IMG/VR virus record: IMGVR_UViG_3300035696_001556
Coordinates: 96,001-160,000 of that record
Origin: a virus
Length of the DNA: 64,000 nucleotides
Direction: 5' to 3' (one strand)
A model generated the notes under the pieces. That model worked only from the letters and a program-made list of their open reading frames with translations. It ran no database searches and had not been told where the DNA came from. Made by a program: the position numbers and the translations under genes. How positions within the stretch are numbered: position 1 is the first letter of the stretch; each line of letters starts with the position of its first letter. Positions 2,769 to 38,082 of this stretch are shown in pieces.

Positions 2769-3380
2769 GTGCCTATATCTAATACATTGATAGCTAGTGC
2801 TATTAAAGGCTACATGGCTTTTGAAGGTTTCACCGGTAGAGATATGGGAAGCCTCGCAGATGCTATTGGTATCGGAGTCTTTAAGGATATTTGCACTCCA
2901 AGTATAACCTCTGGTTTAATGACTGGCACTGTAGGGCCTTTAGGAACAGCTACAAGCCTTTCCGTGGCTGGGATAGTACCTACGGCTATGAGCGGAATGA
3001 TGAAGGCTAAAGGGGCTCAGAATGGTTTTACAGGAAGGGATTTAAGTAAGCTTGCAGACGCAATATCTAATGGGGTGTGCGATGTTTTAATGACAATGGT
3101 ATTGACTGGAACAACAGTAGGTTTAGCAGTAGGAGGCGGTACAGCGAACTTCGTAGGATTAGATGAGAATGAGTTAAGCGCTGACATAAAATTGGCTTTG
3201 CCTGAATTCACGGGAAGGGATATACTTAATCTGACTGATATGATAGCCGCTGGGATAGTTATGCATTTAATGTCCTCCGCTGTTTTTACCGTAGTGGTGG
3301 TTGGAATTGTATCTCCAGTGCCCCCAGTAGGACCTATCGCTATAACAGGGATACCTATAGTTGTACCAGTTGTTAGCTAA
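2769..3380 (+). CDS. Hydrophobic three-repeat virion protein (possible spike tip)
   Basis: GTG start 1 nt after the spike stop. Three FTGRDxxxLxDxIxxG repeats; Gly/Ala/Val rich. Confidence 0.6.
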   Translation: MPISNTLIASAIKGYMAFEGFTGRDMGSLADAIGIGVFKDICTPSITSGLMTGTVGPLGTATSLSVAGIVPTAMSGMMKAKGAQNGFTGRDLSKLADAISNGVCDVLMTMVLTGTTVGLAVGGGTANFVGLDENELSADIKLALPEFTGRDILNLTDMIAAGIVMHLMSSAVFTVVVVGIVSPVPPVGPIAITGIPIVVPVVS

Positions 3381-3391
3381 AAGGATATAAG

Positions 3392-6300
3392 ATGTCTTTC
3401 GAATTTTTTGAATTACAATCTATCGATTTAGAAAACACGGTAGTTAGAAATCCAAGGGTCGGTGCCAGAAACAGGCCTACATCCAGAACTATTGATATAG
3501 GCACTACTGGCCCAGGTGCAACCGGCGTTTATACTGGAGAGAGGGATGTCAATGTTGAATATCTTCTCCAGGGAGCAGTTAATGGAGATGTAATAAAAGC
3601 CAGTTCAGCTATTTTCGATAATCCTGCGGTAACGCCAGCATCATTAAGAGCTAGGGTCATAACAAATGTAACAGGCCTTAACGGATTACAGCCTGCTGAA
3701 ACTATAAATTATGGGGACATAATTCGTGCAGATGGTGATATGGCTTTCTATAGCATTACCGGGATGGGTTCCATTACGGGACAGGAAAGCTTTGGAACGG
3801 TAATATTTCTTAGCCAGGACAACACAACCGCTACAGGAGTCAACTCGCTTCAAGTACGAAAAATAAAACTGGATAGTACACATTTCGAGTATATCATAAA
3901 TCCTACAGGTCAAAATAATTTTTACTATGACGAGAAAAATAGAGACTGGGGTTACAGTGGCACGCAAGGATTTACAGGATGTGTTATAGCAGCTTCTACG
4001 GTACAAAGCTATTTCCAAGGTGACCCACTTACTTTTCAGTTCTATCCGTCTTATTGCAGTACTGCACCAGATGTCACTTCTGTGGACACAACAGCTATTG
4101 ACCCAAAGCAACCGTATGGCTTAAAAGTTCTTGACAACAAGCTGGCTATAGACACACCGTCCATTCATTTGAGCCCTGTGCCATATCCAGATGACGATGA
4201 GAATTTCAGAGTATATTGGGGTCCACAAAATAATTTGGAATTAAAGACCAAAGACATAGACTATACAGTTAATTACACTATAGATCCTGATTACACATCA
4301 GCAAAGCCCCCCTATAAAGACAGGAATGTAGCTTATGTAAAGTTTTTAAATCAGCTTAATGATACTACACAAGTAGATAGCATAGGCTTAGGTTTTCAGG
4401 GAGTATTTAATCTTCATCAGGATCCAAGCACTTCTGCTACCAAACAGCCGACAGCTATAACGAATATCTATCCTAATGCAAAAGGTTTGTCAATAGCTGG
4501 CTCTAATACAGAGTACATTGGAGAAATAGTCCGTGTTGGAGAAGAGGTTAAGCAAAAAAATTTTGACTATAACATAGAATATGACAACGGCATAATAAAC
4601 TTTATAAAGCATAACAGTCTTGAGCTTGATGTACCTAATGTCCTGTACAATCAAAAGCTGATCTGGGATGGTATAAGCGTTATAAAAGGAGTTGGCCTTA
4701 CTGGATTAGTTTCACCGGACAGAAGTGATTGTGTATTACCGTACGCTGTTTCAGGGCTCACCGGTATAGACGGTCCAGTTTTCTTTGAAGACATAGACGC
4801 GAACGATCTTATAGAAGGAACAGATTACATAATAGAATATACTAGCGGTGCCATCAAATTAACGAAACCGCTTAAAGGTAACGAATGCGTACTTGTCTCT
4901 TATTTTGTAGAAGGTGAAGCCGTTGTTAATGAGCCTCTGAATCTAAGCGTTTTGCGTACGGAAAAGTATCCAATCATTGAATCCTCTGTTACCATAAAGA
5001 AAACTTATTCTAATATAAGTACATTAACAAACGGGATCAATATCTTAGTTGAAGGTGTGGATTTCTCGGTATCTTATCTTACAGGCAAGATTACGCTTCT
5101 GAACCCTGCCATAGGCGAAAATATTAGTTCACTTCAAATAAGTTATACACCTTTCGCCCAAGTACAGTGTATCTTACAGCCGGTTCCGTCTGATGACACA
5201 AACTACAGAATTACTATCCTTGATGATGTAATGACCACAGTCGATCCTTTTAATCTGAAGTTTGAGATAGATAACCCAACAGTTTCTATCCCTGTAGTGG
5301 ATCCGTTTGGAGTTTCACCAACTACGTACAGCAGCTCTATCATCCCTGGCAGTGTCTTCTCTGTTAAAGCAATAGGCGAACCAGGATATGGATTTGATAA
5401 TCTTACTCCAGATCAAATGATAGCCATAGGAATGACCGGCTTAGAAATAATGGGATTGGCTACGCTTCTTGGAAAAACAGATGCTGAATTTTATGCATTA
5501 GGAATTACTGGCGTAATTAGTCTGGGTGTTACAGGAATACAGTATTACGATACTACAAATTATACTTATACTGATAGCACAAAATATCTGCAGCTTGATG
5601 GCACCGAAAACGCAAGTAAACCAAAGCCAGATATCAACGACATTATCACTGCCTCTTATACGTATGTGGCAGATGTGCTACCTTATACTCCAGTACAGAT
5701 TATTTATCCAGTGCTTGATCAGGATACCAACACTATCTTGATAGAAGGTTTCGATAAGACGGATATTATTTATTCTGGCATGACTTTCAGAATTGATAAC
5801 TCGGATCCCCAGAATACTTACTATTTCATTGTATCTTCCGTGACTTATGATGGTTTGAATACTTTAGTCACTCTGACAGGATCATTTTCAGAAGAGATTC
5901 GTAATCCGTCTTTTTATCTTTTTGATGACATTGTTGAATGGTATCCTTTACCAACAGGTTCTAGAGTGGACTCTACAGCAACTCTTGGATCAGATACAGT
6001 AACCATTAAAGGCAACGCCTTAGAATCTTTGAATTTGTTAAGACCTAAAACTTTGATGATGGTAGATAACACAAACATTTATGAAGTTATGACTACCACA
6101 GTAGTTGATAGTGAGACTTTGAACGTTAAGATATTCCCTAATCTCATGAATGAGTATCCAGGGAATATTCAGATATCCGAGCCTATATACCAAGTTGGGG
6201 ACACGACTGTTAATTCAGAGTATCCTATAATAACAGACCCACCTCATCCAGCTTTCACAATCAGATACATAGCCCCAGTTAATGCTATTTATGGATTTGC

Positions 6301-9300
6301 TACTATTTTCATAGACGCAGATCAAATAACTTTGGCGGAGATTGTCGATAACCAGGTGTTCTCGTATCCTCCTTTTGTGTACAGCTCTTTTGCCAGCATA
6401 TATGATTTAGCCCAGGCGATACAGAATACCGTGAATCAAACCTATCAAACGAATCCTTTCACGCTCACATCGTCAGACGGAGTGGTGCAGTACTATCTTG
6501 GTACTGGCTTCTGGGATGCAGACTTAGTAATACCGTTTGATCAGGACAGTCCTGTGGTGATACCTACGGAAGGATACACCATAACAATAAATCAGGAAGT
6601 TTTCAGATACATAGTAATTAGAACATATAAGGATGCCACGAACTTTCTTGTGGAGAGAAAAGATCTTACTGTGACGACCCCTCCATATTTCTCTGCAGGG
6701 CAGCTGTTGGCTTTTAAAAGTAAATCTTCAGGTAATACTAGCTTCTATCAAATCTCTGGAGCTACAAGTGTGTTTGAACAGCCTCCTTCCGGAATTACCG
6801 GTGTAGTAGATACTCAGGTATCTTTCAAGGATTCTTTCAGAGAGAACATGATAGATCCTTACATATATAAATATGATGGTGTCAACTGGATGCCATTATC
6901 ATTAGTTTATATAATAGATTATGTAAACTCTAATATAACTTTCAATGGGACTTCTGATTTCTTTAAAGTCGGAGCGCTACTAAACTTTAACGGCGGTTTT
7001 ATTTATAGGATAAACAGTGTATCTACTGTTGGTGCCACAGTCACATTAAATTTGACTCCAGCTATAAGCTCCAGTTTGAATAATATCCTGTCAGTAAGCA
7101 TATCTGACATGCCTATTTATTTGAACGAAATAACCAGTCAGCCATATTTTGTAATAGATTACACGCTCCCACCTGATCGCTCTGGAGAAGCCAGAGTAAC
7201 AATAAACGATAGCTATCTTACTATTACGGAGAGTCTCGATGGTTATCCAAACATGACAGCCATGGTTCCGCTGCCTTATAACAAGGCATCTAATCTGGAT
7301 AACCTATCACAATTTGGAGATTATTTGGCGCGTTTATCAGGTGTTGATATCAGAGGATCTATATTTGTTGATACGTCAGCATACGATTCAATATTCATAG
7401 CGGGAGGTAAGGCACTTAAGTTGGTTCCAACCCAACAGGGACCAGTATCGTTGTCTGCATCCATAGCTGTGTCTTATCCAATATTCCAGATTAATTACGT
7501 AGCTCCTACAGGCAATGTTGATGGAGATATTTATATCCCCAACGATGGATCAGCTGTTATTCAACTTAGTGAATGGAAAAAGACAGACAAATCAGGCACA
7601 TTAGTGACTTATAATGTCCCTTATGACGGGATACCGATAGTTAATATCATATCGATGATACGTTCAGTACCTTCCATAATTCCAGGATATAATCCTTGGT
7701 CTGTTTCAAACGAAAACTACGATAGCTATTATGCCACGAATAAGCCTTATTATTACAACATCATACCATTTGCAAGTCAGTCGCATGTAGCTTCAACCTC
7801 TATGCCCTATTCCGTCCAGGCTACTCAGAATCCAGTGTCCTGGTACAGCGTGCCGATACTGAATAGAAATGTCCTGACAGAGGGAACGGATTACAGCATA
7901 GATGGTACACAGGTTGTTTTGAAAAATCCTATACAAGTAGGAGAGAGATATGAAGTAAGCTACCTTGGTGTGAATGATCTGGCAGAATATGATGGGGAAA
8001 CCATCAGATGCTCGTGCAGATACTTTTCTACTGTTCCTGCTGGTTATCAAATAAGTGTTTATATGGACTATCTAAATCCCGATCAGTACTATATACAGAA
8101 ACTTACTGAAAGAACTTTCCTTGAAATAGTTACAGTACCACAGATACAAGATATCCTTCAGCAAGCTGGTAATAGCGCGGGCATGGGAAACAGCAGCGGC
8201 AGTGACGATACAACCCAGAATTACCAGGGTGGGCTTGTAGATCTCTACTATCAACTAAAAGACGAACAGATCAAACAACAAATATATCTTAAGGTTTTTC
8301 AATGGTATAAACAAAGACTTAGAAATTTTGCTGCAGAAGCTCAGGTTACTATGGGTATTGAATATGGTCACAGTAATCACATAGGTGTAAATGAAAACGG
8401 TGTGTTTAACATGCAGGACCAGTACGTTGAGGGAAATAACTATACACTAACTAAAGCATCTGATTTTGACCAGCTTAAAAACGGCTTTTCTAAATTTTTC
8501 CCAATCAATTATACGGATTCAGCGCCTCAGAAATATCCTCGTTTTACAAATAACTATGAGTCCTATAACGAGGTTTTTTGTTATAATGTGGAATACCATG
8601 ACAAGAATGATAGCTTCATAAGTAAAGAGGGCAGAGTTCTTTCTGCTAATCCTTACTGGGCGGATATTCCTCAGGCCTATGGTCCCGATACTGGTGGTGT
8701 CACCGGTTCAAGCTTAGATTTTGACATCTTACCATATACGCAGACTACTTCCGTTATTGCTGGCGGGACTATGTACTATGTTCCGTACAACGAGGATGAA
8801 AAACTTTTCAAGGTAACCGATGATAATTATAAGTTCTTAAGGAGGATATCCGTTGGGGACTCGGTACAACTATATGGCTTCCAGAATACATACAACATAG
8901 GAGCAATAGAAAACCAAAGCAGTGTGCCGAACGGAGCTGTGGCTATTAATTATGTGGTTCCGATACCAGGTTCTACCGGTGTTTATACAATTCCTATGAC
9001 TTACGATGGACCAGCTCCTACGAAAACTACTCCTAATCCTTCACCAGGCACTCAACAGATATACGGTACATATGCAAATACAACAGGGGATGCGGGAGTC
9101 ACTTCTACATACGCGGCTGTAGGGGAGGACTATCCATTAGGAACTCCGGTGGTAAAAAACACAGTTTCTGGAGCCATAATAGGACTTAGTTATAAAGTGG
9201 CCAAAACTTTGGTTCCTTTTGACAGGCTAATTCTAAGTAACGCATATTTCACAGAATCGGGTGTGCCGACATTCGTAGTTAAACCTGATTCCAATGGAGT

Positions 9301-12300
9301 TTATACATACTACTATTATACAAAAGATTTCCCTTGGGAGAATCCACAGCAACATAGCTGGAGCTTAAGCGATCTGGAGATACAGCTTCCTAAGGACGGG
9401 CAAAATCTAATAGTGACAAGGAACCAGAATAGTGATTATCCAGTTATTTTTCCTGCCTGGGATGATGAATACAATCTTGGAACAAAAGTAGTTGGATCCA
9501 AGATAGTTGATCAGAAAACTGGAACTGATACTATAAGAAAATCATTCTCTTTCGAAGATCTATTTAGTCTTGATGACGATGACAAGCTATTCACGGTGTA
9601 TGAAGGAACTTATAACGATATAACGGGCTTGTGGGAAGTTAGAAATACCATAACCGTCAATATGAAATATTTGAACTTCTTCGATGAAAGAAGTGTATCA
9701 AGAGTTGTTGATTCTATTAAATACAATGTAACAGGCTCTAAATATCTGATCCCGGTACCACCTTTCTTTGTCGAGATATCCAAAATATTTGAAAAGAAGG
9801 ATAATTTAGGGACAGATAGATTGTTCTATGTTTCCTTTGAGGATTATTACGATGCCAGCCTTTCTGGAGGATACGGACAAAGTATAGTTATGAGAACTAG
9901 AGATAGGAACAGCTGGGTCCAGTATGAAGTTACTTCAACCAGTACGCCTCCTGTAGCTCCGGAGTATGGTTTCTCATCCCCAGACATCTATACTAACTTC
10001 TATTATCCAAATAATTTGTTCTTAAAGCTTTTGGTAGAAAAACAAGTGTGGTTGACGGAACTCAATATCATCAAAGATCTTTTTGATACAAATAATAAAT
10101 TGAAAAGAGCTTTTGAGGTAAATGTTCAAAATGCTGTAACGACTACTCCTGGACCATCAGAATTTCAGGCATATTTGTCTCAGGTTTCTGAAAGTTCCGG
10201 TATCAATAATATCGAGGCTGCGATCAGCTCCTATAGCGAACATCTGAAATTCTTGTTGGATAGGTCTGATACTGTTCATCCATATCTCGTTGACAATACA
10301 TCTGGTCCACTGTATAGGACTATGATGGAAAGCCAGCCCATAACTATACCCATACAGAATTCGTACAACCAAGCTGAAGCTGCAAATATAGCCTATACTG
10401 CGTTCCAGGGGGAGTCAAATTATTATTTCAGTTTAAACGACTACTATTATCAGAAGTGGCAAAATGAGTATGAAAAATGGGCGTTAAGTCTTGAAGCTGG
10501 AAGTGTTTTTCAGAAAGATGCAAGAGACAACTATCAGAGCAACTATGATATAAATATAGGCTTCAACACATTCCCAGCTATTAAAATGTCCGTAATAGAT
10601 CAAGGATCTAAGGCAGCATTTACTATATCCGATGCTAAGTATTTGGTATATTATAACATACTCGAAACGGCAGATACCAGCGCAGATGAATACGATGATG
10701 CTACTCTGTTGATAACATATTTGGTGTCTGGAGATACCAACTATACTTTCATTTCTTTTGCTCTTCAAAACTACCCTACTTTACAGGCTCTGGTTGAGGA
10801 TATAAATGCACGCTGCAATGTAAACTCACAAGGTGTCAATTTAGGTGTGCAATTCATATCAGCATCTTGCGTTTTCAATTACTATCCGTATAGAAACTAT
10901 TCTCCACTGTATATACTTAGAACTTATAGAAATGTTGCAAATAATGATTCTAATGGCACTGATTTTTCATCTGGAGATGGATGGACTGTGCTCTCTACTG
11001 ATCCTTCGATTGATGATCGTATATATGTCTCCAATGTTTTGGATCATAGAGAATATGATGCAAGAGTTTTCTTTTTGAATAGGATAGGTTTCAAGTCTGA
11101 TTTTCTTTCTATTGATGGGACTAACTACAATGTCTTTCCTTACTATCTACCTGGGGACGCTAATTCTGGAAAAGATCTTTTGGGAGACAGCAAAGCAGGT
11201 CCTATATCTGTTTCAGGTAGATGGGCTACTGATGCCTATGGCTTAACTGGAGCACAGAGCGTAGATTATACGACTGAATTAAATGTAATGACAATCTCAC
11301 CAGCACTACCTACTGATACTTTCATAAGATATGAATTCCTTGATTATCTTAATGGTCCTGAACAGCTTCCTATACAGCAAACTCCTAGAAATCCTACTTA
11401 TGAAAAAAGTCAGGCAGATCTAACAAATATAGGGTATGACGAGACGACACAAAGTTTAGTAGAAGCTTATCCTTTGATTACAGGACCTTATACTAATTTC
11501 TCGCCCACGGGTCCAGATAATTCGAATTACGACACACTGATGCAGTGGACATCCTATGCCCAAGGATATACAGGAAGTCAGGCTCCTCAAACAGAAGTAA
11601 TAAGAGATCTTCAGATAGAGCTTATGTCTCAAGACCTAACTACGCCAAATAAGTTTAATAAGATATTCTTTACTTTCAGCTTGAGGCAATATTCCACTAT
11701 CAACGAGTTGGTGCATGCTTTAAATACAAACAGGTATACAACAGTTTTGAATCCTGATGGTATAACATATACCGCGCAATTAGCTACAGGAGCTTCAGGA
11801 AGCGTATATTTCTCAGCTGCTTTAGTTGGGTCACCAGACATACAGGGGAATATGAAGACCGTTGACTTAGTTACTAATTATGTTAGGCAGGAGATATATG
11901 TCTCTAATTATACGTCCTACACTTTAAACTATACATATACAGATATAAACGGTGCAATTGGAGTTCCTACTGTAATTCCTAACTCTGTATCAGTAAATAA
12001 GAGTTTCCCAATTGGATGGCAGCTCAGAGAACAAGATTCTTTGAGCACCAATACACAGCTTAACTTCAGGATAGATCCTAAAACATATAGTCCAAGCTAT
12101 TCTTATCGTTTTGTGCCAGACAAGCCTGATTTGGCACGTACGAATACATTCCTGTCTCAGAAGGAAGATATCTTAGCTTTTGATTTGTACAGCTGGGATA
12201 CTAATGCATATTATATGATTAAGAATAATGTACTCTATCTGAAAAGTGATACTGTAGCTCAAGTACAGATACCTCTTTATAAAACTCAAAGCTTGGATAC

Positions 12301-21200: not shown

Positions 21201-21705
21201 ACAGAGTTTCCTTTTAAAAACGATAATGGAAGTATCTGGGGTAGATTCCGTGGAAACTCCCTTCTCTATTATGATGAAAAGAGCTGGATCATATATCCCA
21301 ATGGATAACTTGGGAACAGTATCTTTCGAAGTCTTCCAAAACTCAAGTAATAGTAATGGCGTAGTTTCTTATCAGAGTATCGATCCAGTGTTAACATACA
21401 GTACCACAGATGGTGGTGGTCCAAGTAATCTTTTCAGGGCTGTCTATGAAAACATGATAGAGTTGAACTTGGTATCTGATCCTACCTTAGTATCCGGAGG
21501 ACCAGGTAGAGCCGCTATCACGGCAGATGGAAGGATAACGGTCAGTACAACGGATGGCAGTCCTCCGCAAACAAAAAGTTATACAGCTGCTTATTATGTG
21601 GCTTATCCGACAGGAGTTACCTATACTGAGGATTTAACGACGGATGAAATAGAATATCTAAATGTGGACAGTCTGAGTTTTCAAGGAATAGACTTTACAA
21701 ATTAA
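18295..21705 (+). CDS. Baseplate J/gp6-like wedge protein
   Basis: RKAATNSQGSVVI...IPDGTVV; ITAVTAGSIGNVPSGSI...SVEND...GTDLE...RI; GVPGV...GGKVDIYV are characteristic Baseplate_J segments. Confidence 0.85.
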   Translation: MSYTGQLGQLQSPTIVSPMTNWVPQGETGANYEYYSSSLTQQILGSLPVPLSVPNNVSLAVLYSYTITRNGSISIPTPYSQVGTTTGATNPALEDVPWSFNTVSYGTVPITYYITLLEGDILTISFISRDLSGQYLDSNPSEVVVNIVSINEINTSASIPSGIQLKLFKDNMKILIPKSSLLVSSNSDFLGCNFYISLSPGGGTNGYQLMNDTYVSTTDDSELVETIVTLSDVTSEADSTTTETKQTQQVPTEYYTFSVNKTVLTNLVNDGVISNVFLSDNVSINQDIVFYYVTTSAAYDRTLNTAVESSYSLELNGKFLQYSTDFTGLPSRTRQDILLSVVQRLTTNNNLVNVVTGQVIRDVIDPVTDMFSKFYVIEDFVFRCNSIDCLLYFDDTNGDGISDPVATSPLKTALADALGITDYTVLQSLIDQQFDKQGANFEMARKAATNSQGSVVIFTTKKPVSDLSIPDGTVVTYPGDLNLNIQPQTYTVIGDHTMEAATITNYYNPSKQRYELPASITAVTAGSIGNVPSGSITIITGVDSSLSVENDVPTDYGTDLEINSSYGARIKMARPSFDAGTKPGYTATTYGVPGVQEAIIQAAGDPLMIRDYDPTTGQHIGGKVDIYVRGTNETQIIDQVAFKFDYPTDVLGNKIGEIFYVTDASEFRIKTTNSKVTATSPIVIVSRVHNTTRNADYDLSDLVIATDTLLLSTTSPRNVSIGMATLDVIEVDYEYMSSNVLPLENQPVIELISVSDSGGNTIDPSLYQIVKSEDPLKTGNSSISTDGIEFLFSSADQLAEAITLTNEQHVIRVNLPAQLNYKGVILNTIVVQSQDLSTTYKNNIDYTITLGNQTEFTYINIKPNGMIRSGFTVSVSYEASQNFFVAYTYDSLINQVQTQINNMKHACADVIVKEAVENMVDLSFTVTRDLSVATTNNGTQTDDEMALISRIQTAVFNAVAGLQMGQTLKQSFLLKTIMEVSGVDSVETPFSIMMKRAGSYIPMDNLGTVSFEVFQNSSNSNGVVSYQSIDPVLTYSTTDGGGPSNLFRAVYENMIELNLVSDPTLVSGGPGRAAITADGRITVSTTDGSPPQTKSYTAAYYVAYPTGVTYTEDLTTDEIEYLNVDSLSFQGIDFTN

Positions 21706-21717
21706 GAGAGGTTTTAA

Positions 21718-26113: not shown

Positions 26114-27274
26114 ATGCTTTCTCAGAACTCTAAAAGCAACAATATAAGAACTTCGTTTGTTGGGAGCGGACTGACAGGAGTTCAGACTTATGCTCAGGCA
26201 CAACAGTACTCTGTTGACCTGGGAACAATACTGTACAATAACTCCTTCAAGAGTTTGAACAGCCTTGTCATTCCTTTAAAAGATCAAACCTTTTTTGATC
26301 TGCCCCAGGACAAGGGAAAGTATGCTGTCATAAATGTTTATTATGATGCCGAGAATGGTAATTTTGTATTCGATGAAATTTATTTGGGATATAAATATGT
26401 AGAAAAGCTATCTGCTCCAGCGTTATACAATGTAATACCTCTAGCTCAGTTTACGCTTCAGGAGAGCCAAGGAAGTTATATAGTAGTAAGTTACAATGAA
26501 TATTCCCAGATGGCGACTTTCTCCATAACGGATACTTTTATTCAGGGAGATACTGGGATAAAAGCTGCCCCTGGGGAGACTGGTCCAGAAGGAATAACGG
26601 GTTTATTTGGCTCGTGGGGTTGGACTGGTGTCAACGGAGTGACAGGAGATCAGGGTTTAACTGGATTATCAGCAACGGGTATAAACGGATTACAGGGAGA
26701 AACAGGGGTATATGTAGATAAAACTGTTTTACTGTATCACAAATTTAAAACAGCAGATGCTAAACAAACGGATTATTCTTTCTATGAAAGAGACTGCATC
26801 TATCAATACACTGGTCCTAATGCTAATCCTAATTATACAGGAACTTATGGAGTTTCTGGAAGTCCATTGTCCTATTATTATCTAGAATCTGGTGTTGTGG
26901 ACTATTGTCACGAGGTTGTCTATGGAGGAGGTTTATCGCAGTACATAAGAAATGAGTTTGTAGAATTTGGAGTGTCTGGGTCTCAGTTTGGAGTAACAGG
27001 AACACTAAGTGCCTGGATAAAATTAACTGAAAAGCCTATTGCAGGCTTTACTGGCACTCTAGATTCCATTAATCCTATGATAGTTCATTTTCATGACACC
27101 TCAACTCAGCAGCCTACCTCATGGACTTGGTGGATGGATTATCTCGGACAGTCGGTTGTTCTTAATATGCAAAATCCAATATATGCCTTTCCAGTTACAG
27201 GGATGCACATAGTTAAACTGAGAGCGACTAATCTTAATGGTTATTCTGAAATATGCCATTTTGTTAATTTGTAA
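26114..27274 (+). CDS. Collagen-repeat fibre protein with partial LamG and C-terminal PKD domain
   Basis: GXY run 26546-26707; TLSAWIK; PKD pattern PIAGF...FHDTS...SWTW...NPIYAF...G...VKLRATN. Confidence 0.7.
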   Translation: MLSQNSKSNNIRTSFVGSGLTGVQTYAQAQQYSVDLGTILYNNSFKSLNSLVIPLKDQTFFDLPQDKGKYAVINVYYDAENGNFVFDEIYLGYKYVEKLSAPALYNVIPLAQFTLQESQGSYIVVSYNEYSQMATFSITDTFIQGDTGIKAAPGETGPEGITGLFGSWGWTGVNGVTGDQGLTGLSATGINGLQGETGVYVDKTVLLYHKFKTADAKQTDYSFYERDCIYQYTGPNANPNYTGTYGVSGSPLSYYYLESGVVDYCHEVVYGGGLSQYIRNEFVEFGVSGSQFGVTGTLSAWIKLTEKPIAGFTGTLDSINPMIVHFHDTSTQQPTSWTWWMDYLGQSVVLNMQNPIYAFPVTGMHIVKLRATNLNGYSEICHFVNL

Positions 27275-27282
27275 TAAAAAAT

Positions 27283-29907: not shown

Positions 29908-29915
29908 GGCAATGT

Positions 29916-30563
29916 ATGCTGAACACAAAAAATAATACGTTTAATGTCAGAATCCAAAGCAACATCGCGGATTATACCGTTGTTATAGATTCCGGATCGT
30001 TGGTTATTGACAACAAGTGGATCGATTTTAAAGGTGTGCTTTTTAATATAAAACAATATTTAAGAAACGCAGTCACGGGAAGCAGAGTAAGGTTTTTTAC
30101 CAACGTTAATTATGCGGGATATCTAGTACTTGGTATCGATGTAACTGGAGCTCTGATAGTTTTGGAAGGGGCACAAGTTTCATACACTACTCTGGCTTCA
30201 GTCCCTATTCCACCTGTTTTTAGTATGGTCCCGATAGCGGGGATAGTGGTAATTCAGGATGGTTCAAATAATCTGATCGATGGAATAAATCCCATAACCG
30301 ATAGTAATGTCATTTTCTATTCGGGTATGGGAAACACACTTGACAAAAATCAAAAAGGGATAATGGGTTTTGATAGTAATATACTTGGCGACACAGGTCT
30401 CTGTGGACAGACTGGATATCCTGGATTAGACGGAGACACAGGCCTGCAAGGTTTGCCAGGGATTGTTGGACCTGTAGGTTTTGGTTTTACAGGTCTGCAG
30501 GGATCCCAAGGACTTACAGGAATAAATTGGGACATAGCCGTTGGCTTTAATATTCTGTTATAA
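29916..30563 (+). CDS. Collagen-repeat virion protein
   Basis: GXY run 30357-30521. N-domain paralogous to 30606 (QDGSNN/QDGSND...PIT...YxGxGN). Confidence 0.7.
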   Translation: MLNTKNNTFNVRIQSNIADYTVVIDSGSLVIDNKWIDFKGVLFNIKQYLRNAVTGSRVRFFTNVNYAGYLVLGIDVTGALIVLEGAQVSYTTLASVPIPPVFSMVPIAGIVVIQDGSNNLIDGINPITDSNVIFYSGMGNTLDKNQKGIMGFDSNILGDTGLCGQTGYPGLDGDTGLQGLPGIVGPVGFGFTGLQGSQGLTGINWDIAVGFNILL

Positions 30564-30573
30564 AACCGATATT

Positions 30574-30581
30574 CTATTAAT
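30574..30581 (+). promoter_or_regulatory. Putative late-promoter motif CTATTAAT
   Basis: Exact motif copy in a 42-nt intergenic gap, followed by TTTTTATC as at 38087. Confidence 0.5.
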
Positions 30582-30605
30582 TTTTTATCTCATTTAAAGG
30601 CTAGC

Positions 30606-31604
30606 ATGTCTCTCATCACTAGAATAAATCAGCCTTTTGCATCGTTAACCAAAGATAGTGCTATCCAAGGAAATAGTATTGTCTTTATCAAAGGTGGCTC
30701 TACCATAATAAATGGTAATTGGTTGCAGTTTAATGACCTTAGGATAGACGTACAGGCGCTGGTAGAAAGTTACATAAGTCAGCAAGCAACTAGGATTTTT
30801 AATACAGTAAACGGGATTTTGTATGTAGTTATAACTCTCAATCAAAGTAGTAAGTTAGAGGTGATACCAAGTATCTCTTTAAACCAGACAACGACAGGGA
30901 GTGTAAAAGTTTTCAGTTCCTTGTCTGGAAGATTGCCACTGATGCTGGTTACCCTGCAACAGGACGGATCAAATGATTTATCCAGTATCATACCTATTAC
31001 AGCTGATGCTATAGAAGTCTACAAAGGTTATGGAAATTTTACATTAATAGGGCAACAAGGAGAGACTGGTCCTCAAGGAGATACAGGGATACAGAACGGA
31101 ATAGGACTAACTGGATTAAATGGACTAATAGGTGAACAAGGAATAACAGGTTGTATAGGATCAATAGGAGAAAACGGAGTACTAGGAGCGACAGGATTGG
31201 AAGGACAGGTTGGTGTTTCCATACCCAGAGAGGTATTCATAATACCCGTTAATCCTATAGCTAATTTCGTTGGAGTTCCCTTATCTGTAGATCAAAGTGT
31301 AGGGGTTGCTTTTACTAATCTGTCATTGGGTGATTGGAATAGCCTACTATGGGATTTTGGGGATGGATCAACTTCTACAGATAGTTCCAATCCTATAATT
31401 CACGCATATGATAATGTTGGTGTTTATACAGTTACCCTTTATTTATACGGTGTAGGTAACAATAGCAGTTCGACTGGAAATTCACCTTTTACTGTTATTG
31501 AACCTTATGACGTTCAGGATACGATAGATCCAAATAATCCATATGGCACTTGGACAACTGTAATAGGAAATGTTAATGTCACACAGAATTCAGTAGTTCC
31601 TTAA
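30606..31604 (+). CDS. Collagen-repeat + PKD virion protein
   Basis: GXY run 31050-31214; PKD PIANF...FTNLS...WDFGDG...HAYDNVGVYTVTL. Confidence 0.75.
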   Translation: MSLITRINQPFASLTKDSAIQGNSIVFIKGGSTIINGNWLQFNDLRIDVQALVESYISQQATRIFNTVNGILYVVITLNQSSKLEVIPSISLNQTTTGSVKVFSSLSGRLPLMLVTLQQDGSNDLSSIIPITADAIEVYKGYGNFTLIGQQGETGPQGDTGIQNGIGLTGLNGLIGEQGITGCIGSIGENGVLGATGLEGQVGVSIPREVFIIPVNPIANFVGVPLSVDQSVGVAFTNLSLGDWNSLLWDFGDGSTSTDSSNPIIHAYDNVGVYTVTLYLYGVGNNSSSTGNSPFTVIEPYDVQDTIDPNNPYGTWTTVIGNVNVTQNSVVP

Positions 31605-31619
31605 TAAAGGAGATTTTTG

Positions 31620-32780
31620 ATGTCAGAAACTGGAGCATTAAAGCACATCATTCAAATAAACGACCTGAGAAGTAATTTAGAGCAAGGCTTAACTGGAGCT
31701 GGTCTTACTGAACTAAAAGCTAATCAGATAGCAATAGCTTTAGGAACAACAGGCCCTTCTCCCGTTTATCGACTTTTGTTCAGAGACAGTGTTGGAGGTC
31801 CTCATGATGTCGCTAATTTAACTGATATTGGAGCTGGTCCTGCTGGAGCAACTGGAGTTCTTGGATCTACGGGTCTTAAGGGAGCAACTGGAGCACAAGG
31901 AGTAACAGGACTTTCCGGTGTTGGTGGCGGTGGAGGTGTTACTGGAAGTGGAGTCAGCACTCAAGTAGCTGTTTGGACTGCTAATGGGTCTATTGGTGGA
32001 TTTAATGGATTTATTTATACAGGAGGTTCTTATTCTCCAATTTTATCTTTAGTAAATGGGGAAACCGGTGGGACAACTGTACTTAATTTTGTTGATGAAG
32101 ATAGCCAAATTTCTTCAGAAGGTAGCTTTGACCTTAATTCAGGTGGAGATTTTAATTATTCAACAACTGATCCAACAGGAAATTTTAACATTACCTTGGA
32201 TCCTGAAGGAACTGGGAGTTTTTATTTACATTGTCAGGTAGCTTCTTTCTCACTCAGTCCAAGTGGAGGAGCAGGAAGCTATACTCTTAACTTTTCTGCT
32301 GGAACTACACTTGTTGCCAAATTTGAAGGGGGTTCCGGTTTAGATCAGGTATGGTCTGCAGGAGCAAATAATGACAATCTTATAATAGCATCTGGCGGAA
32401 GTTTTGAGCTACAGGCAAATTCAAACATTTTTTTACGGGCATCTTATTCTGTTGAAGAAGGAGTTTATAATGATAGTAATTTATATATAATGAATTTTAT
32501 TGGGTCAAGTTTTTCTCCCCCTTCAGCGGATGTGGCTGGAAGTATACAAATGTCAGCTGTTGGAGATCTTAATATTTTTTCTGGATTAGGCGCTGATGAT
32601 GAGCGTACAATTAACATGTATTGTTATACTTCTGGTGGCTCAACTATAAAGTTATTAACTCTTTCTCCAAATTTTAATGGAAGTGGAACAGTTTTTATAT
32701 ATAGTCTTCCTAGTGACTCTGGAGGACTTACAACTGGGGCACTGTATAATTCAAGTGGTACATTAAAAATTAAATCTTAA
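31620..32780 (+). CDS. Tail fibre-like protein with short collagen segment
   Basis: SD AAGGAG before ATG 31620. GAT/GST/GVT triplets, GGGGVTGSG..QVAVW fibre motif, C-terminal LPS..GL..GALYNSSGTLKI. Confidence 0.7.
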   Translation: MSETGALKHIIQINDLRSNLEQGLTGAGLTELKANQIAIALGTTGPSPVYRLLFRDSVGGPHDVANLTDIGAGPAGATGVLGSTGLKGATGAQGVTGLSGVGGGGGVTGSGVSTQVAVWTANGSIGGFNGFIYTGGSYSPILSLVNGETGGTTVLNFVDEDSQISSEGSFDLNSGGDFNYSTTDPTGNFNITLDPEGTGSFYLHCQVASFSLSPSGGAGSYTLNFSAGTTLVAKFEGGSGLDQVWSAGANNDNLIIASGGSFELQANSNIFLRASYSVEEGVYNDSNLYIMNFIGSSFSPPSADVAGSIQMSAVGDLNIFSGLGADDERTINMYCYTSGGSTIKLLTLSPNFNGSGTVFIYSLPSDSGGLTTGALYNSSGTLKIKS

Positions 32781-32802
32781 ATAATATTAAAAAGGAGATA
32801 AA

Positions 32803-33663: not shown

Positions 33664-33777
33664 CCTATAAATAAGAAAAAATTATGATTGAAACCACTTG
33701 CTACAACTCAGAAACAGTTGAATAATATTAACAGTTTGTTAGCACAACTGTCCTAAATAGACAGAAAGATAAATAAA

Positions 33778-36700
33778 ATGGCAGATGTGACTTCAGAATC
33801 TCTTGCTCAACAGGAGCTAAACGGTAGAAAGAGGTTTGATACAGGGATAGAGTTTGAAAAAATAATCTCTAACCTATCTCGAACCATCCAGGATCGTTTG
33901 ATTATAAATCTGCCTAGCAACTACCCTCAAGATCGCAATACCAATCTAGCAGAGCTTTACAGAGCCTTTTCCGAGGAGTTTGCCCGTCTACAATCTTCTT
34001 TGTCCGATGTTAACGCCGATCAATATCACGATACGACAAGATATCAATACCTCTATGAGATCCTAGGGGATACTCTCTTCCTTGATGATAACGCGATAAA
34101 TAACAACATTTCGGATGTAGCGTACAGACAGTTCCTGATAACTGTTAGGAATGCATACTATGGCGGAAGCAGAACAGCTAATATCGAAAGTGCTGTGTCA
34201 GATATCTTGGGTGTCCCGGTAGTCCTAAAAGAGCTATATCTGGAAGCGAGAAAAAGTAGCTCTTCGTACACAGTCAAAGATTCTAACAAGATGTTTTTTG
34301 ACGTGCTCATGGATTACGTTTCTTCATCATCTTCCATAGGGCAGATCCTGCAAAGTTTAGCTTTTTTCTTAAGTCTTATTAAACCAGGACACACGCTCTA
34401 TGATACTCGCCTAGTATGGAAAGACGCTATATCACATGACAGAGCATGCACTCCTGTTTATACAGCGGGAATGACATCAGGTACGTTTTATGGTGTAGAT
34501 AAAATAGGCATGGTGACTTCTGTTATAAGTAGTTTATACTATTTCCCTAGCCCTATCCCCGATGTAAGTCAAAGATGGATAGAGGGTACTGTAGTCTCTG
34601 TAGACTCCAACAAAAGTATAGTCTATGCCCAGGATCTTCAGAGCAATAATTTAATCTTAGTAGTCGTAACAAATTCTCAGTTATATGAGAGAACTCAAGA
34701 CGAAGAAGATGAAATAATAGATACTCCGATTACTATAGATGATCTACCTGTTGGGGGAAGTATAAAATTTTATGCTACTCAAGATAGTCCAACTAGTTCT
34801 GGAGTAATAAAATCAAATTGGCTGTATACGGATGTGATTGTATCAATCGACCCTTCATTAGAGATAATAAATCTTAAATCTGGTGGAATTTTAGTTTATA
34901 ACTCTGATGCTTTGATCTATACAAGAGACAGCGAAGGGGAATACAGAATATTAGTTACGGATCTGCTACCTGGATACACAATAGTGTTTAAAGGTACTCT
35001 GTACACTGAATCATTTAATTTTTACAACGTCCCAACAGAAGTCCAAGAAAATATCTACAAACAATATGATCCTGAAATAATAAGAAAGCCTTATTTCCAG
35101 GATAACGTAAAGAAAGTCCTTGAGACAAGAGACGGTCTACCTATAGGCCCTGCAGTCGTAATGATCGATGGAGTAGCGACATCGGTATATGTAAATGGAA
35201 AATTTTATGAAAGAGCAAACTCAGTAAATTATCAGAGCACCGAAATCTATAGATACAGTCTCTACATAAACAATGTCTATACCGATCAGTTTTCTATCCA
35301 AGCTCCTAATCCTGAGATAACAATAGATGAAGCAAAAGCTATATTTATTTCGCGTGGGGATACAGGACTAGAGACAAATCCTTATACGATAGATGTAAGT
35401 ACGACTGCTCAATTGCTTGAATCAACTGATAGCCCTACAGTCCAGGCAATAGGAATAGGAGCAACAGGTCAAACCGAGGCTTGTGACAGAAGAGCCGAAT
35501 GCCATCTGATCCCTTATTATGAAGATAATAGAAAATATTATGAGTATCCAGACGTTGAGTTGACTTCAGGTTTTATTCATACCCCATACATACCTCCTAT
35601 AGGTAGCCCAACAGGACTTAATCTTCCCGCATATTTTAATATATCTCAAGACCCTAACACATACCAGATGCCGCTACTCCCTATTTTGAATAGTATAGGT
35701 ACACCGGCATCTCCTGGTGATTTAACAGTATACGTAAATGGCTTGAAAGTTGTTGATGCTGTAAGTAGCGTTGATCCTTGGACAGGAGGGGTTGGCCTAA
35801 ATTTTCTTCCCCCAGCTAACTCACTTATCAGAATCGATTATTATTACTCAGGGAGATACCCCCTTGCGCAATATTATATCGAAAGAATAGGAGAGGTACA
35901 ATCGTCGCAACGACTACAATGGCCTTACCCACTAACGGCTACTGGGATGTATGGTGGCGCACAAGATTTTCAGGTAGATCTATATCCTATTTTAAATCAA
36001 CAGGGAGAACTTGCCTGCCCTTCAGATATAGAAACCTTTGTAGGGGATCCAGGGGCTACGGGTATCATCGTAAACAACATAGGTGATTATACCCTTGTTA
36101 CAAATTCTAGCCTAGCTGGAGTAGCAGGTGGTGATACACTAATAGTGAACTCCCAGGATATCTTTGAGAATACTCTCATTTATTCAATCGTCGGGATAAC
36201 AGGTACAAACGATATCATAGTTGATAGGGCGTTCCCGCTAGATATAACTTTAGCCACACCTACTTTTGAAACCATAAGATTCACAGGAGTTACAGGGGCT
36301 GTAGATCAAATAAGACCGCTTTTAGGTCACATCCATACAGCCATTACAGGAGCGGTAGGTTCCTATATCAAGTTTGATTATTATTTCACGAACTTCAATA
36401 GGACATATACAATGGTCCCTGATGTCTGGGGAGCTACTGGCTTTAAAGGATATCCAGGGATTACTGGTTTTTATACGGATCAAGGACATACCCCTGATAC
36501 TTTCTACGGAAATTATAGCGGATTTACCCTTGTCCCTGACCAAGGTCTTACTGGATATGTAAATCCAATATTCGAATTCGGGCAGGTAGCCAAAACAGGA
36601 TATCGTTACAGGGCTTTCAATCTTTCCAACAGTTCTGTATTAAATTCTAGAGATACTTTAGTCCTTGATGGATATACTAAAGAAGATGGAAGAGCGTCTT

Positions 36701-38082
36701 GGAAGAATAATCACAATGTCCTGGATCAATATAGCCTTCTGTTTAGCCCGGAATATCTAACTGACACAAGTCAAAGTATAGTTTTGAATGATAAATATCT
36801 ACAAAACAATTTGGATCCTGTTACCAAGCTATACCCCGGTACGCCTCCTTTTGTTCAGACATACAGCGATGATGGGCATTATGTAGATAACAACCTTCCG
36901 CAGGAACAGAACACATATCAAGAGCCTTCTCAGGCATCGTACGATTTAAACGCAGGATTTACTATAGTAGGAACCGATACTTCTGGTTTAGTAGATTATC
37001 AACCTGTATGCGAATATGAAAAAAACAGACGGATAAGACTGTACTCTGGATTGAAGATGGTAGAGACAGGTTATACAGGGTTCCAAGGGCCTCTGACTTC
37101 TATTACAGAGGGACAGAGATCGCTACCATTTAGGATGCTTTTTATAGATCAATATTATCCAGATAGAGAACAAAGACTGAATGACTATTTGGATTATATA
37201 AATAGAGTCCCAGAGGAGTTGAAGAGCGGGGTCCTTAAAACCTTAAAAAATTCAAAGATTGTAAAACGGGTAGAAGGTAATTGGCTGTCTCTTAGAACAG
37301 GCGACATGCTGACTATACAAAATGTTCCGTACAACGGATCAATATTGGATATAGTCTACACTGTTCTGAATGTTATAGACTATGAAACTGTAGAACTGAC
37401 GACAACATTCAAGCAAGTTTCTGGGGAATATAATTATGAATTGACCAGAGATACCGTTTACAATGTGGATGTCTATCTTAATAAAGTAACAAGGGCGATA
37501 TCAGTTACCGGTATAAATACATTACAAAGCCTAGGTGCTGTAGGTTTAGTTGGTATCCCAGAATATGGAGAGACAGGTTTATATAGCGAAATGACTTTCC
37601 CTGATCCTGGTCTTGAGCCCTATCCTAGGAGTCCTGACAATCCCGATATTACTAGTCTACCTACAGGCGATAGAACTATCCTTCTGCATCATGAGACTGG
37701 GTTGGGGCCAACTGATACTAGATACATACCTCTTATCAGTGAGATAATAGGTGGTGAAGGAAGTTCTGTGTTTTATACTGGTATGTATCCAGGATACACT
37801 GGATCATACACCGGCCCAAGTGGAGCCTTGAACTTAGGGTTGACTGGGCCTACTTGTGATAATGTTCCAACAGTGGTAGAAGGCGATGACAAGTATTTCA
37901 TACCTTCTGGCTATTCAGGGATTTTCTGGGCGTACAGTGAATCTGAATACCGTATTAATTGGAGAAACTGGGACATGGGTTTGATGATAATACACAATCC
38001 AGGTGGGATAGTGGGTCTAAGTGGATCTGAGGGAATCATAGGAATAACAGGTACAACAGAGTGGGGAATCAAATTAGTCTAA
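33778..38082 (+). CDS. Large baseplate wedge protein (P2 gpI/gp7-like N-terminus)
   Basis: N-terminal LPSNYP...YLYEILG...YRQFL...YYGGSR..NIE..V..ILG..V.LKE...LIKPGHT, typical of tail_P2_I-like domains. Confidence 0.7.
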   Translation: MADVTSESLAQQELNGRKRFDTGIEFEKIISNLSRTIQDRLIINLPSNYPQDRNTNLAELYRAFSEEFARLQSSLSDVNADQYHDTTRYQYLYEILGDTLFLDDNAINNNISDVAYRQFLITVRNAYYGGSRTANIESAVSDILGVPVVLKELYLEARKSSSSYTVKDSNKMFFDVLMDYVSSSSSIGQILQSLAFFLSLIKPGHTLYDTRLVWKDAISHDRACTPVYTAGMTSGTFYGVDKIGMVTSVISSLYYFPSPIPDVSQRWIEGTVVSVDSNKSIVYAQDLQSNNLILVVVTNSQLYERTQDEEDEIIDTPITIDDLPVGGSIKFYATQDSPTSSGVIKSNWLYTDVIVSIDPSLEIINLKSGGILVYNSDALIYTRDSEGEYRILVTDLLPGYTIVFKGTLYTESFNFYNVPTEVQENIYKQYDPEIIRKPYFQDNVKKVLETRDGLPIGPAVVMIDGVATSVYVNGKFYERANSVNYQSTEIYRYSLYINNVYTDQFSIQAPNPEITIDEAKAIFISRGDTGLETNPYTIDVSTTAQLLESTDSPTVQAIGIGATGQTEACDRRAECHLIPYYEDNRKYYEYPDVELTSGFIHTPYIPPIGSPTGLNLPAYFNISQDPNTYQMPLLPILNSIGTPASPGDLTVYVNGLKVVDAVSSVDPWTGGVGLNFLPPANSLIRIDYYYSGRYPLAQYYIERIGEVQSSQRLQWPYPLTATGMYGGAQDFQVDLYPILNQQGELACPSDIETFVGDPGATGIIVNNIGDYTLVTNSSLAGVAGGDTLIVNSQDIFENTLIYSIVGITGTNDIIVDRAFPLDITLATPTFETIRFTGVTGAVDQIRPLLGHIHTAITGAVGSYIKFDYYFTNFNRTYTMVPDVWGATGFKGYPGITGFYTDQGHTPDTFYGNYSGFTLVPDQGLTGYVNPIFEFGQVAKTGYRYRAFNLSNSSVLNSRDTLVLDGYTKEDGRASWKNNHNVLDQYSLLFSPEYLTDTSQSIVLNDKYLQNNLDPVTKLYPGTPPFVQTYSDDGHYVDNNLPQEQNTYQEPSQASYDLNAGFTIVGTDTSGLVDYQPVCEYEKNRRIRLYSGLKMVETGYTGFQGPLTSITEGQRSLPFRMLFIDQYYPDREQRLNDYLDYINRVPEELKSGVLKTLKNSKIVKRVEGNWLSLRTGDMLTIQNVPYNGSILDIVYTVLNVIDYETVELTTTFKQVSGEYNYELTRDTVYNVDVYLNKVTRAISVTGINTLQSLGAVGLVGIPEYGETGLYSEMTFPDPGLEPYPRSPDNPDITSLPTGDRTILLHHETGLGPTDTRYIPLISEIIGGEGSSVFYTGMYPGYTGSYTGPSGALNLGLTGPTCDNVPTVVEGDDKYFIPSGYSGIFWAYSESEYRINWRNWDMGLMIIHNPGGIVGLSGSEGIIGITGTTEWGIKLV

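Follow-up and report, generated by a model that had tools for sequence, protein, structure and literature searches.

Among the known systems nearest to the one considered here are SgtA-BclA3 of Clostridioides difficile, in which a collagen-like glycoprotein of the exosporium is paired with its O-GlcNAc transferase, and, more loosely, BclA of Bacillus anthracis. SgtA is a 358-long protein with a GT-A domain (residues 1-260) followed by a TPR region (residues 262-358); its gene lies directly upstream of bclA3. Given short synthetic peptides that represent the GPT collagen region, the enzyme modifies their Thr with O-GlcNAc (PMC7157674). Since SgtA is active on short peptides, an enzyme of such architecture has no need for a triple helix and could act on an isolated G-x-T-G tetrapeptide. 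GmaR of Listeria and FlmG of Caulobacter (PMC7591256) also combine a substrate-binding TPR region with a GT domain, and modify a structural protein that is still cytoplasmic and unassembled. Chemically proven glycosylation of phage virions is limited, in the literature surveyed, to mycobacteriophages, for which no minimal sequon is known. According to the account of Freeman et al. (2023, Cell Host Microbe, PMID 37329881) given in PMC12619734, their glycans were shown chemically on the C-termini of capsid and tail-tube subunits; glycosyltransferases of the phage itself are the proposed or demonstrated source of this decoration of its virion proteins, the acceptors being in flexible tails. Mimivirus likewise encodes collagen-like proteins of its fibrils together with its own glycosyltransferases (PMC9614988, PMC4691112), although this is a eukaryotic virus with another chemistry in which no scattered tetrapeptide sequon is described.

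The window analysed here is a stretch of 64,000 nucleotides of a huge phage genome (positions 96,001 to 160,000 of IMG/VR record IMGVR_UViG_3300035696_001556). The tetrapeptide G-x-T-G (written G.TG as a pattern) occurs 15 times in a 3529-long protein, against 1.32 expected from composition, and 13 times in a 1434-long baseplate wedge protein, against 0.88 expected. These are exactly the counts of the original prediction, and the enrichment that it proposed withstands comparison with shuffled sequences: none of 500 shuffles reaches 15 in the first protein (mean 1.39) or 13 in the second, and replication proteins have 0-2 copies each (two in the NAD ligase). In an unbiased scan of three-residue patterns, G.TG comes out on top both for the three big proteins (34 observed, 3.1 expected; p = 6e-24; 9,893 patterns) and, once collagen is masked, for the virion block (75 observed, 13 expected; p = 1e-31; 19,813 patterns), which rules out a cherry-picked motif; the same scan does not place G.TG in the list of top patterns for proteins outside the virion block. 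The sub-patterns [^G].TG (20), G.T[^G] (15) and G.[^T]G (12) each occur as often as expected in the 3529-long protein, discarding a general richness in TG or G..G, and neither G.SG nor G.AG is enriched in it. Gly and Thr codons within the motif follow genome-wide usage, so G-x-T-G is not a DNA word. A DNA-level origin is dismissed by this codon usage together with a blastn-short comparison of motif neighbourhoods to the collagen genes, where the only matches, of 11-14 nt, are the motif itself. The confinement of the excess to the whole tetrapeptide, with ordinary codons, indicates selection at the protein level. The G-x-T-G excess is thus real, acts at the level of protein and is specific to a lineage.

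The 3529-long virion protein (3392..13981, plus strand) is encoded between a hub-like gene and the baseplate genes. It is of unknown family, with no match in Pfam and PHROG searches, and 14 of its 15 motifs lie outside collagen-type runs. The wedge protein (33778..38082, plus strand) is identified by PF10076 (E 4e-5) and the baseplate family phrog_1160. Its amino terminus is weakly similar to Mu Gp48 and is followed by a long carboxyl-terminal extension; the 13 motifs span residues 527-1422 and include a tail cluster rich in Tyr, Gly and Thr (FYTGMYPGYTGSYTG...GLTG) at residues about 1330-1357. Smaller carriers are encoded on the same strand. The 386-long fibre protein (26114..27274; PF01391 E 6e-6, tail fibre PHROGs) has 10 motifs where 0.4 are expected, four of them outside its short collagen-like runs at residues 154-200. 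Collagen-like fibre proteins of 215 residues (29916..30563) and of 332 residues with a PKD domain (30606..31604) have five motifs each, against 0.3 and 0.4 expected. A Gly-rich 387-long protein (31617..32780) without a Pfam or PHROG family has eight (0.9 expected) and a collagen-like run at residues 74-112. The G-X-Y runs in the fibres of the window are 12-39 residues long and straddle the 27.2-bit cut-off of PF01391, one fibre scoring above and two slightly below it, with E-values of 3e-7 to 1e-5; an 870-long protein encoded outside the window gives an unambiguous collagen match (PF01391, E 1e-94). Another enriched protein, of 1424 residues, is encoded at genome position 20832, far from the fibres.

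The core baseplate genes (18295..26109, plus strand) are free of the excess. The Baseplate_J-like protein (1136 residues) has one motif, against 0.5 expected, and the BNR-repeat baseplate protein (1463 residues) none, against 0.8, so that these two proteins serve as an internal negative control. The sheath has two copies (1.1 expected) and the hub-like protein and capsid-region candidates have none; the load of candidate acceptor motifs in capsid-region proteins and sheath is thus 0-2, at expectation. This differs from the mycobacteriophages as described in the account cited above, whose glycans are on capsid and tail-tube subunits: here the motif is not enriched in the candidates for capsid and sheath, no tail-tube gene was recognised, the proteins that carry it belong to the wedge, the fibres and a group of giant orphans, the sequon is another one, and the system is known from its sequence alone. 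The original description of the motif as virion-wide is too broad: it is enriched in a handful of large peripheral proteins and at expectation in the sheath, Baseplate_J-like, BNR, hub-like and capsid-region proteins.

A DNA-level search of a phage collection detected no close relatives of this phage (G000), and protein-level matches are distant only: an uncultured 485-kb phage, Tunturiibacter phage Tunturi_5 and Bacillus phage G. Relatives were found by an alignment-based search of IMG/VR with the wedge protein, which has 57 homologues; a search with the Baseplate_J-like protein alone found nothing. Taking G000 as reference, wedge orthologues have 17, 14, 15, 13, 7, 5 and down to 0 copies of the motif, and in an alignment of 20 sequences (A1) each of its 13 sites is kept in at most five of the other 19. 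Motif residues fall at positions with a higher gap fraction (0.43 vs 0.18) and lower identity (0.13 vs 0.30). As the copy number ranges from 17 to 0 at mostly non-homologous, indel-prone positions, the wedge can fold without the motif. The orthologues of the 3529-long protein in G007 and G003 have seven and five motifs, respectively, and share 0-1 of the 15 positions of G000. The motif is, as initially proposed, a lineage-specific Thr motif, acting at the protein level in one subclade and turning over among orthologues.

The isolated motifs have the same frame as the unit of the phage's Thr-rich collagen-like repeats (...G-x-T-G...), with Thr preceded by Gly at -2 and followed by Gly at +1. 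They could be what is left of short collagen-like stretches after decay, or have arisen neutrally through recombination with collagen genes, in either case without a function of their own. True collagen runs of 27-36 residues in some wedge orthologues, and the few motifs of G000 found in mini-runs, such as residues 885-897 of the wedge and 37-49 of the 3529-long protein, agree with such an origin. Against it, most motifs are solitary, with flanks lacking Gly in register, and their DNA has no similarity to collagen genes beyond the motif. The debris that decay predicts, G..G and G.T, is at expectation, and about 14 sites of the 3529-long protein were gained where its orthologues show unrelated residues, neither gaps nor collagen. 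We give this origin very little credence.

The placement of the motif was inspected in an AF2 model of the wedge, a poor model (mean pLDDT 55.6) that includes 11 of the motifs. Seven of them are in coil with pLDDT below 50, those at 806 and 837 are where a strand passes into a turn within a confident beta domain, that at 759 is inside a strand of the same domain, and that at 1098 is just past the end of a strand with marginal confidence. Positions in variable loops, turns or tails of peripheral virion proteins are supported for the motif sites. The X position is mostly hydrophobic, and at two or three sites in beta-hairpin turns the last Gly is semi-conserved in orthologues lacking the motif, features that also fit a structural turn.

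G-x-T-G could accordingly be an unmodified structural or assembly signal, forming tight turns or flexible hinges, or serving the docking or registration of the small collagen-like fibres on the enlarged wedge. Besides the strand-to-turn sites, gene neighbourhood speaks for this explanation. In fetched loci with G-x-T collagen-like genes directly upstream, the wedge has 5-17 isolated motifs, and otherwise 0-3 (10 vs 5 distinct loci, Fisher p = 3e-4, the loci not being phylogenetically independent). The split between motif-rich and motif-poor phages can be traced to about two separate events in evolution, one in the long-wedge subclade and one in the P0025 lineage, which leaves such correlations little phylogenetic power. 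The small fibres have orthologues only in the motif-rich subclade, those of the 386-long protein being confined to long-wedge phages. A structural turn leaves unexplained the strict need for Thr, with G.SG and G.AG at expectation, and the near-complete turnover of positions while the count is maintained. It does not account either for the way in which motifs cluster in the low-complexity tails of the small proteins encoded next to the large glycosyltransferase described below, or for the enrichment of proteins far from the fibres, such as the 1424-long one. We know of no mechanism by which a single G-x-T-G docks a collagen helix. Weighing these points, we consider a purely structural or assembly role rather unlikely.

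The gene immediately downstream of that for the Gly-rich 387-long protein, and thus between the collagen-like fibre genes and the wedge gene, encodes a 286-long glycosyltransferase-like protein, P0001 (32803..33663, plus strand; phrog_1574, 1e-23), with its own Shine-Dalgarno sequence. It has a DSD at residues 74-76, and D74, D76 and H205 are invariant among 17 homologues (alignment A2). Its match to PF00535 covers the DxD region alone and scores 13.9 bits (E 0.004), below the curated cut-off of 23.3, and hmmscan at E 0.01 does not report the family. A weak match to Anp1 and a phmmer match to STIV A197 (E 0.003) with the DxD aligned are also found. Its AF2 model (pLDDT 66.8) gives top Foldseek hits to Mnn9, A197, LH3, COLGALT1 and mimivirus R699, with E-values of about 1e-7 and probability 1.00 at TM-scores of only about 0.4; R699 is a further point in common with the Mimivirus fibrils. 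The structural neighbours include GT-A enzymes that glycosylate proteins and collagen (LH3, COLGALT1, GalNAc-Ts, POMGnT1). P0001 is thus predicted to have a GT-A fold with a DxD and a downstream His. Its first description as a GT2 gene is corrected to that of a GT-A-fold protein, for which the score falls short of showing GT2 family membership.

Fold, invariant residues, structural neighbours that glycosylate collagen and position of the gene speak for P0001 as the enzyme that glycosylates G-x-T-G across the virion, as do the other sugar genes that fill its slot in relatives (GT2+GT1 in G001, an epimerase in L034). Its distribution argues otherwise. None of 17 related phage records has a homologue, including motif-rich and near-complete ones such as the 98%-complete 466-kb G003 and others with 7-17 wedge motifs. 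The loci of 31 homologues in other phages have G.TG at expectation; the giant ORFs adjoining them show an excess of another pattern, G-[ILM]-x-T. The GC content of P0001, 0.31 against about 0.39-0.40 in its neighbours, suggests a recent accessory acquisition, whereas the whole long-wedge subclade carries the motif load. Judging from this distribution, P0001 is probably an accessory gene that no other member of the clade possesses. The link first drawn between the motif and the gene at 32803 finds no support, and a role of P0001 as the virion-wide enzyme is in our opinion quite improbable.

A better candidate, from domain content and conservation, may be a multi-glycosyltransferase (multi-GT) of 1796 residues encoded at genome positions 51280-56670, about 40 kb upstream of the window, with GT2, TPR, GT1/GT4, GT2 and GT4 domains. 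Its first module matches PF00535 in two stretches (E 3.5e-26) and retains the invariant DxDD and His/Glu positions of the family; D90, D92 and D93 are invariant in an alignment of 19 sequences headed by the phage module (A4). TPR_8, TPR_12, TPR_14 and TPR_2 matches at residues about 236-353 follow directly C-terminal to the GT domain. The nearest PDB matches of the module are GmaR, which transfers O-GlcNAc to flagellin and is the best by sequence, and the peptide glycosyltransferase SunS; identity to GmaR is low (E 6e-10 over about 145 residues). The closest bacterial relatives are GT2+TPR proteins of 350-370 residues from spore-forming Firmicutes. Of 80 such relatives, 46 are encoded no more than 4 kb from a collagen-like gene, which in most cases follows immediately downstream and has Thr as Y in 71% of triplets; the gene order is that of sgtA-bclA3. 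Shared architecture, size and Firmicute relatives make the first module putatively SgtA-like. The glycosylation reading originally put forward is supported in part, in that the genome includes glycosyltransferases of the kind associated with glycosylation of G-x-T collagen, and the gene it had pointed to gives way to a better candidate.

The multi-GT is kept in all eight long records where it could be found, the survey being confined to long records, so that the ENA/Logan loci L034, L037 and L039 of the P0004 and P0025 lineages fall outside it. A gene for a giant G-x-T collagen-like protein is 1.4-5.5 kb away in five of these eight records, and a G.TG-rich protein of 814-819 residues about 7 kb away in two more. 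In G000, two proteins encoded just downstream of the multi-GT, of 87 residues (genome positions 58160-58423) and 169 residues, have [G/Y]-x-T-G clustered in their tails. The multi-GT coexists with G-x-T collagen proteins also in G014 and G017, whose isolated motifs are at 1.1 and 1.7 times expectation. The equal presence of the multi-GT in motif-poor relatives, a further argument for the structural explanation, means that the enzyme does not predict the scattered motif: it is necessary at most and not sufficient. The phage and SgtA-BclA3 systems are alike in the order of GT-A/GT2 and TPR domains, in the neighbouring Thr-rich G-x-T collagen-like gene and in a candidate acceptor Thr flanked by Gly. 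They differ in that the phage module is fused to three more GT domains, with an intein in this phage, in a 1796-long protein of a huge phage, that X is Ile, Val or Leu in the phage and Pro or Ala in the spore protein, and that the tetrapeptide also occurs singly, dispersed over large virion proteins other than collagens, for which the spore system has no described counterpart. GmaR and FlmG, for their part, act on flagellins that have no G-x-T-G sequon.

We privilege the hypothesis that G-x-T-G is a Thr O-glycosylation acceptor written by the GT2+TPR module of the multi-GT, and we find it evenly balanced whether this is correct. A short linear G-[hydrophobic]-T-G motif would have come under lineage-specific positive selection and multiplied at variable loop, turn and tail positions within one subclade of huge phages, in the wedge, the 3529- and 1424-long proteins, the small fibres and the small 'tagged' proteins encoded beside the multi-GT. 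Its Thr would be O-glycosylated inside the infected cell, prior to assembly. The first module would initiate, the three further domains of the multi-GT would extend the glycan, and P0001 would be at most an accessory, strain-specific modifier. We infer glycosylation of the motif Thr, the identity of the enzyme and a role of the glycan, which could be shielding, adhesion or stabilisation. The chemistry is not fixed by the data and a requirement for Thr suits several processes, so the motif could be a site of phosphorylation, proteolytic maturation or cross-linking instead. Against this, no kinase, protease or transglutaminase-type gene is found among the subclade-specific genes, and among conserved genes GT2+TPR alone belongs to a family with a documented connection to G-x-T repeats; we hold such alternative processes to be most improbable. 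Genes present in motif-rich and absent from motif-poor relatives amount to 21 candidates, and none of the 13 scanned with Pfam matches a protein-modifying enzyme, the fragmentary contigs of the relatives giving this profile little power. A search for PF01370 epimerases gives matches in two records only, none near the wedge.

A broader version of the O-glycosylation hypothesis, which we offer tentatively and deem somewhat less probable, is that the collagen repeat unit became a portable sequon seeded, with fast turnover, over exposed outer loops and tails of baseplate and fibres. The resulting glycan coat would be selected for density of sites and not for their position, like the shifting glycan shields of animal viruses; one multi-domain enzyme would write it and accessory glycosyltransferases like P0001 would vary the glycan. 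If G-x-T-G is an acceptor site, it provides a defined four-residue tag with a candidate enzyme and shows, in nature, how a sequon is gained and turns over at the surface of a phage, and a glycosylated surface would be readable from sequence in uncultured huge phages. The SgtA/BclA spore-coat system would then extend to viruses, suggesting a peptide tag for enzymatic glycosylation. If its role is purely structural, it nonetheless illustrates cleanly how strongly a tetrapeptide can be selected within one lineage.

Two further observations concern the range of the motif. Ser was also a substrate for SgtA in vitro (PMC7157674), and the lack of enrichment of G.SG in this phage counts against the glycosylation reading. 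A 203-long protein (2769..3380, plus strand) has two GFTG, both in an internally duplicated segment (GFTGRD...LADAI), and these may be a domain repeat and a different phenomenon.

The source is a single IMG/VR virus record of 173,494 bp (39% GC), almost all of whose genes are encoded on the + strand; the window covers its bases 96001-160000. With an estimated completeness of ~37% (CheckV), the record represents part of a huge phage (G000). No close relative was found in the phage collection searched, and the nearest protein matches are to an uncultured 485-kb phage, Tunturiibacter phage Tunturi_5 and Bacillus phage G. The span under study is a contractile-tail baseplate and fibre module. It encodes a hub-like protein, a 3529-aa protein (window 3392-13981), a weak match to a sheath initiator, a Baseplate_J-like protein, a BNR-repeat protein, four short collagen-like fibre proteins, a Gly-rich PKD/Ig protein, a 286-aa glycosyltransferase (GT)-like protein (P0001, window 32803-33663) and a 1434-aa wedge protein (window 33778-38082) whose N-terminus weakly resembles Mu Gp48. 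Replication genes follow (SNF2 helicase, DnaB, PolA, NAD ligase).

The excess of G-x-T-G first counted by eye is borne out: the 3529-aa protein has 15 copies where 1.3 are expected and the wedge 13 where 0.9 are expected, and neither number was attained by any of 500 shuffles. The genome record holds 236 copies for 39 expected. Collagen-type runs, chiefly G-I-T and G-V-T, account for 156 of them; the other 80 are isolated, 75 in the virion block (18.5 expected) and 5 in the rest of the record (3.1 expected). The excess is a property of the whole tetrapeptide; TG, G.T and G..G lacking the remaining residue occur at expectation, and neither G.SG nor G.AG is enriched. When all patterns of the forms abc, a.bc and ab.c were scanned without bias, G-x-T-G came out many orders of magnitude ahead of any other, both in the enriched proteins and in the virion block, and it is missing from the top list outside this block and in the related phage G014. 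Codon usage within the motif is ordinary and its neighbourhoods share no DNA similarity with collagen genes past the motif itself, so selection acts on the peptide.

The motif is not virion-wide as the original prediction had proposed: in G000 and all relatives, counts in the sheath, Baseplate_J, BNR, hub-like and capsid-region proteins match expectation. It is carried by the wedge, the 3529-aa protein, a 1424-aa protein (genome 20832) and a 427-aa InlB-B-repeat protein, by the small fibres, and by small proteins with [G/Y]-x-T-G-rich tails encoded directly downstream of a large glycosyltransferase. An 874-aa protein (window 27283-29907; 16% Gly, Gly_rich_2-like N-terminus, Ig/PKD domains) has 50 G..G yet 2 G-x-T-G for 2.2 expected, so that one Gly-rich virion protein of the same operon escaped the motif. 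The 203-aa protein at window 2769-3380 is internally duplicated, each copy starting with GFTGRD followed by ...LADAI; both its motifs are thus parts of a domain repeat and may have nothing to do with the scattered ones.

Motif positions turn over across orthologues. Among 57 wedge homologues, the motif load of orthologues ranges from 17 to 0 and the majority of G000 sites align to unrelated residues or gaps (gap fraction 0.43 vs 0.18, identity 0.13 vs 0.30). Two orthologues of the 3529-aa protein have 7 and 5 motifs, either one sharing 0-1 of the 15 G000 positions, while those of the 1424-aa protein have ~5 positions in common. These alignments indicate that the motif is not required by the fold, and the pattern of sites is that seen when site number, not position, is selected. 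An AF2 model of modest quality covering wedge residues 740-1434 includes 11 motifs. Seven of them are in low-confidence coil, two (806 and 837) where strands of a confident beta domain pass into turns, and one (759) inside a strand of that domain; 1098 lies just past a strand end at marginal confidence. Two or three sites on pre-existing turns, together with a hydrophobic X in ~3/4 of isolated motifs, are also compatible with a structural or assembly role of G-x-T-G, which we find unlikely.

The original prediction attributed modification of the motif to P0001. This protein has a GT-A fold with weak matches to Anp1, PF00535 and STIV A197, in every case over the DxD region; D74, D76 and H205 are invariant in 17 homologues, and Foldseek retrieves Mnn9, A197, the GT domains of LH3 and COLGALT1, and mimivirus R699. 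As a conserved partner of the motif it was rejected: no homologue is present in the records of 17 relatives, including the 98%-complete G003, the loci of 31 homologues in other phage contigs have G-x-T-G at expectation, and the gene has a GC content of 0.31 for ~0.39-0.40 in its neighbours. We consider it very improbable that P0001 is the enzyme. Accessory sugar enzymes recur in the slot upstream of the wedge, as relatives carry there GT2 and GT1 genes (G001) or an epimerase (L034). Giant ORFs (~2000 aa) ~3.5 kb downstream of P0001 homologues in IMG/VR contigs are enriched in G-[I/L/M]-x-T, frequently as '..tGIxT..' at regular spacing: 15 vs 1.5 in L026:4401-10961 (p = 5e-11), 9 vs 1.3-1.5 in L008:11216-17332 and L017:11612-18037, and 8 GL.T vs 1.2 in L016:4322-10504. 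This enrichment, not found in G000, may reflect a repeated domain or mark a further acceptor motif.

In 17 IMG/VR loci with wedge homologues, isolated motifs number 5-17 in long-wedge orthologues that adjoin small G-x-T collagen-like genes and 0-3 in short-wedge ones without such neighbours. A separate short-wedge lineage (P0025) is likewise motif-rich and adjoins a G-x-T-G-rich collagen-like gene; the contrasts amount to ~2 independent events. Observed/expected ratios of isolated motifs over whole records are 3.7 in G000, ~3 in G007, G008 and G009, 1.6-1.9 in G003, G005 and G017, and 1.1 in G014. A 489-aa protein with nucleoside 2-deoxyribosyltransferase-like and 2'-5' RNA ligase/LigT-like domains (genome 45774-47243; L140:12774-14243) is conserved among the motif-rich relatives, and no copy was found in the three motif-poor contigs.

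A better candidate enzyme than P0001 is a 1796-aa multi-domain protein (genome 51280-56670; L032:1280-6670) that carries an intein in addition to its GT2, TPR, GT1/GT4, GT2 and GT4 domains. All long related records in which it could be located have it conserved, at 1260-1796 aa. In 5 of 8 records a giant G-x-T collagen-like protein is encoded 1.4-5.5 kb away, and in 2 more G-x-T-G-rich proteins are encoded ~7 kb away. The closest PDB matches of its first module are GmaR, which glycosylates a protein, and SunS, which glycosylates a peptide. Among database proteins, this module is closest to 350-370-aa GT2+TPR proteins, mainly of Clostridia, Bacillus and Paenibacillus; for 46 of 80 such bacterial genes, a collagen-like gene is located no more than 4 kb away, in most cases immediately downstream, and Thr occupies 71% of Y positions in these neighbours. 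The published gene order sgtA-bclA3 is the same arrangement. SgtA (358 aa, GT-A plus TPR), whose architecture the phage module shares, O-GlcNAcylates Thr of short synthetic GPT-repeat peptides (PMC7157674). For an enzyme that evolved on ...G-x-T-G-x-T-G... and also acts on free peptides, the target would be a Thr flanked by Gly at -2 and +1, and this is just the tetrapeptide overrepresented in G000. We give roughly even weight for and against G-x-T-G being a glycosylation sequon. The multi-domain GT and collagen proteins occur also in relatives without the scattered motif, hence the enzyme can be necessary, not sufficient.

A TnpB/OrfB_IS605 gene (genome 58963-60183; L032:8963-10183) lies among the small G-x-T-G-tagged proteins, between the multi-domain GT and collagen-like fibre genes. 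The intein of the multi-domain GT interrupts its last GT4-like domain (residues ~1309-1705; Pfam Intein_splicing, E 5e-11; NCBIfam intein C-terminal region). The orthologue in G008 has about the same length (1784 aa); the remaining ones, of ~1260-1390 aa, are presumably intein-free. A 972-aa head-region protein (genome 35156-38074; L140:2156-5074) matches Hint, intein-splicing and LAGLIDADG domains, so it is probably encoded by a structural or packaging gene that, like the one for the multi-domain GT, contains an intein.
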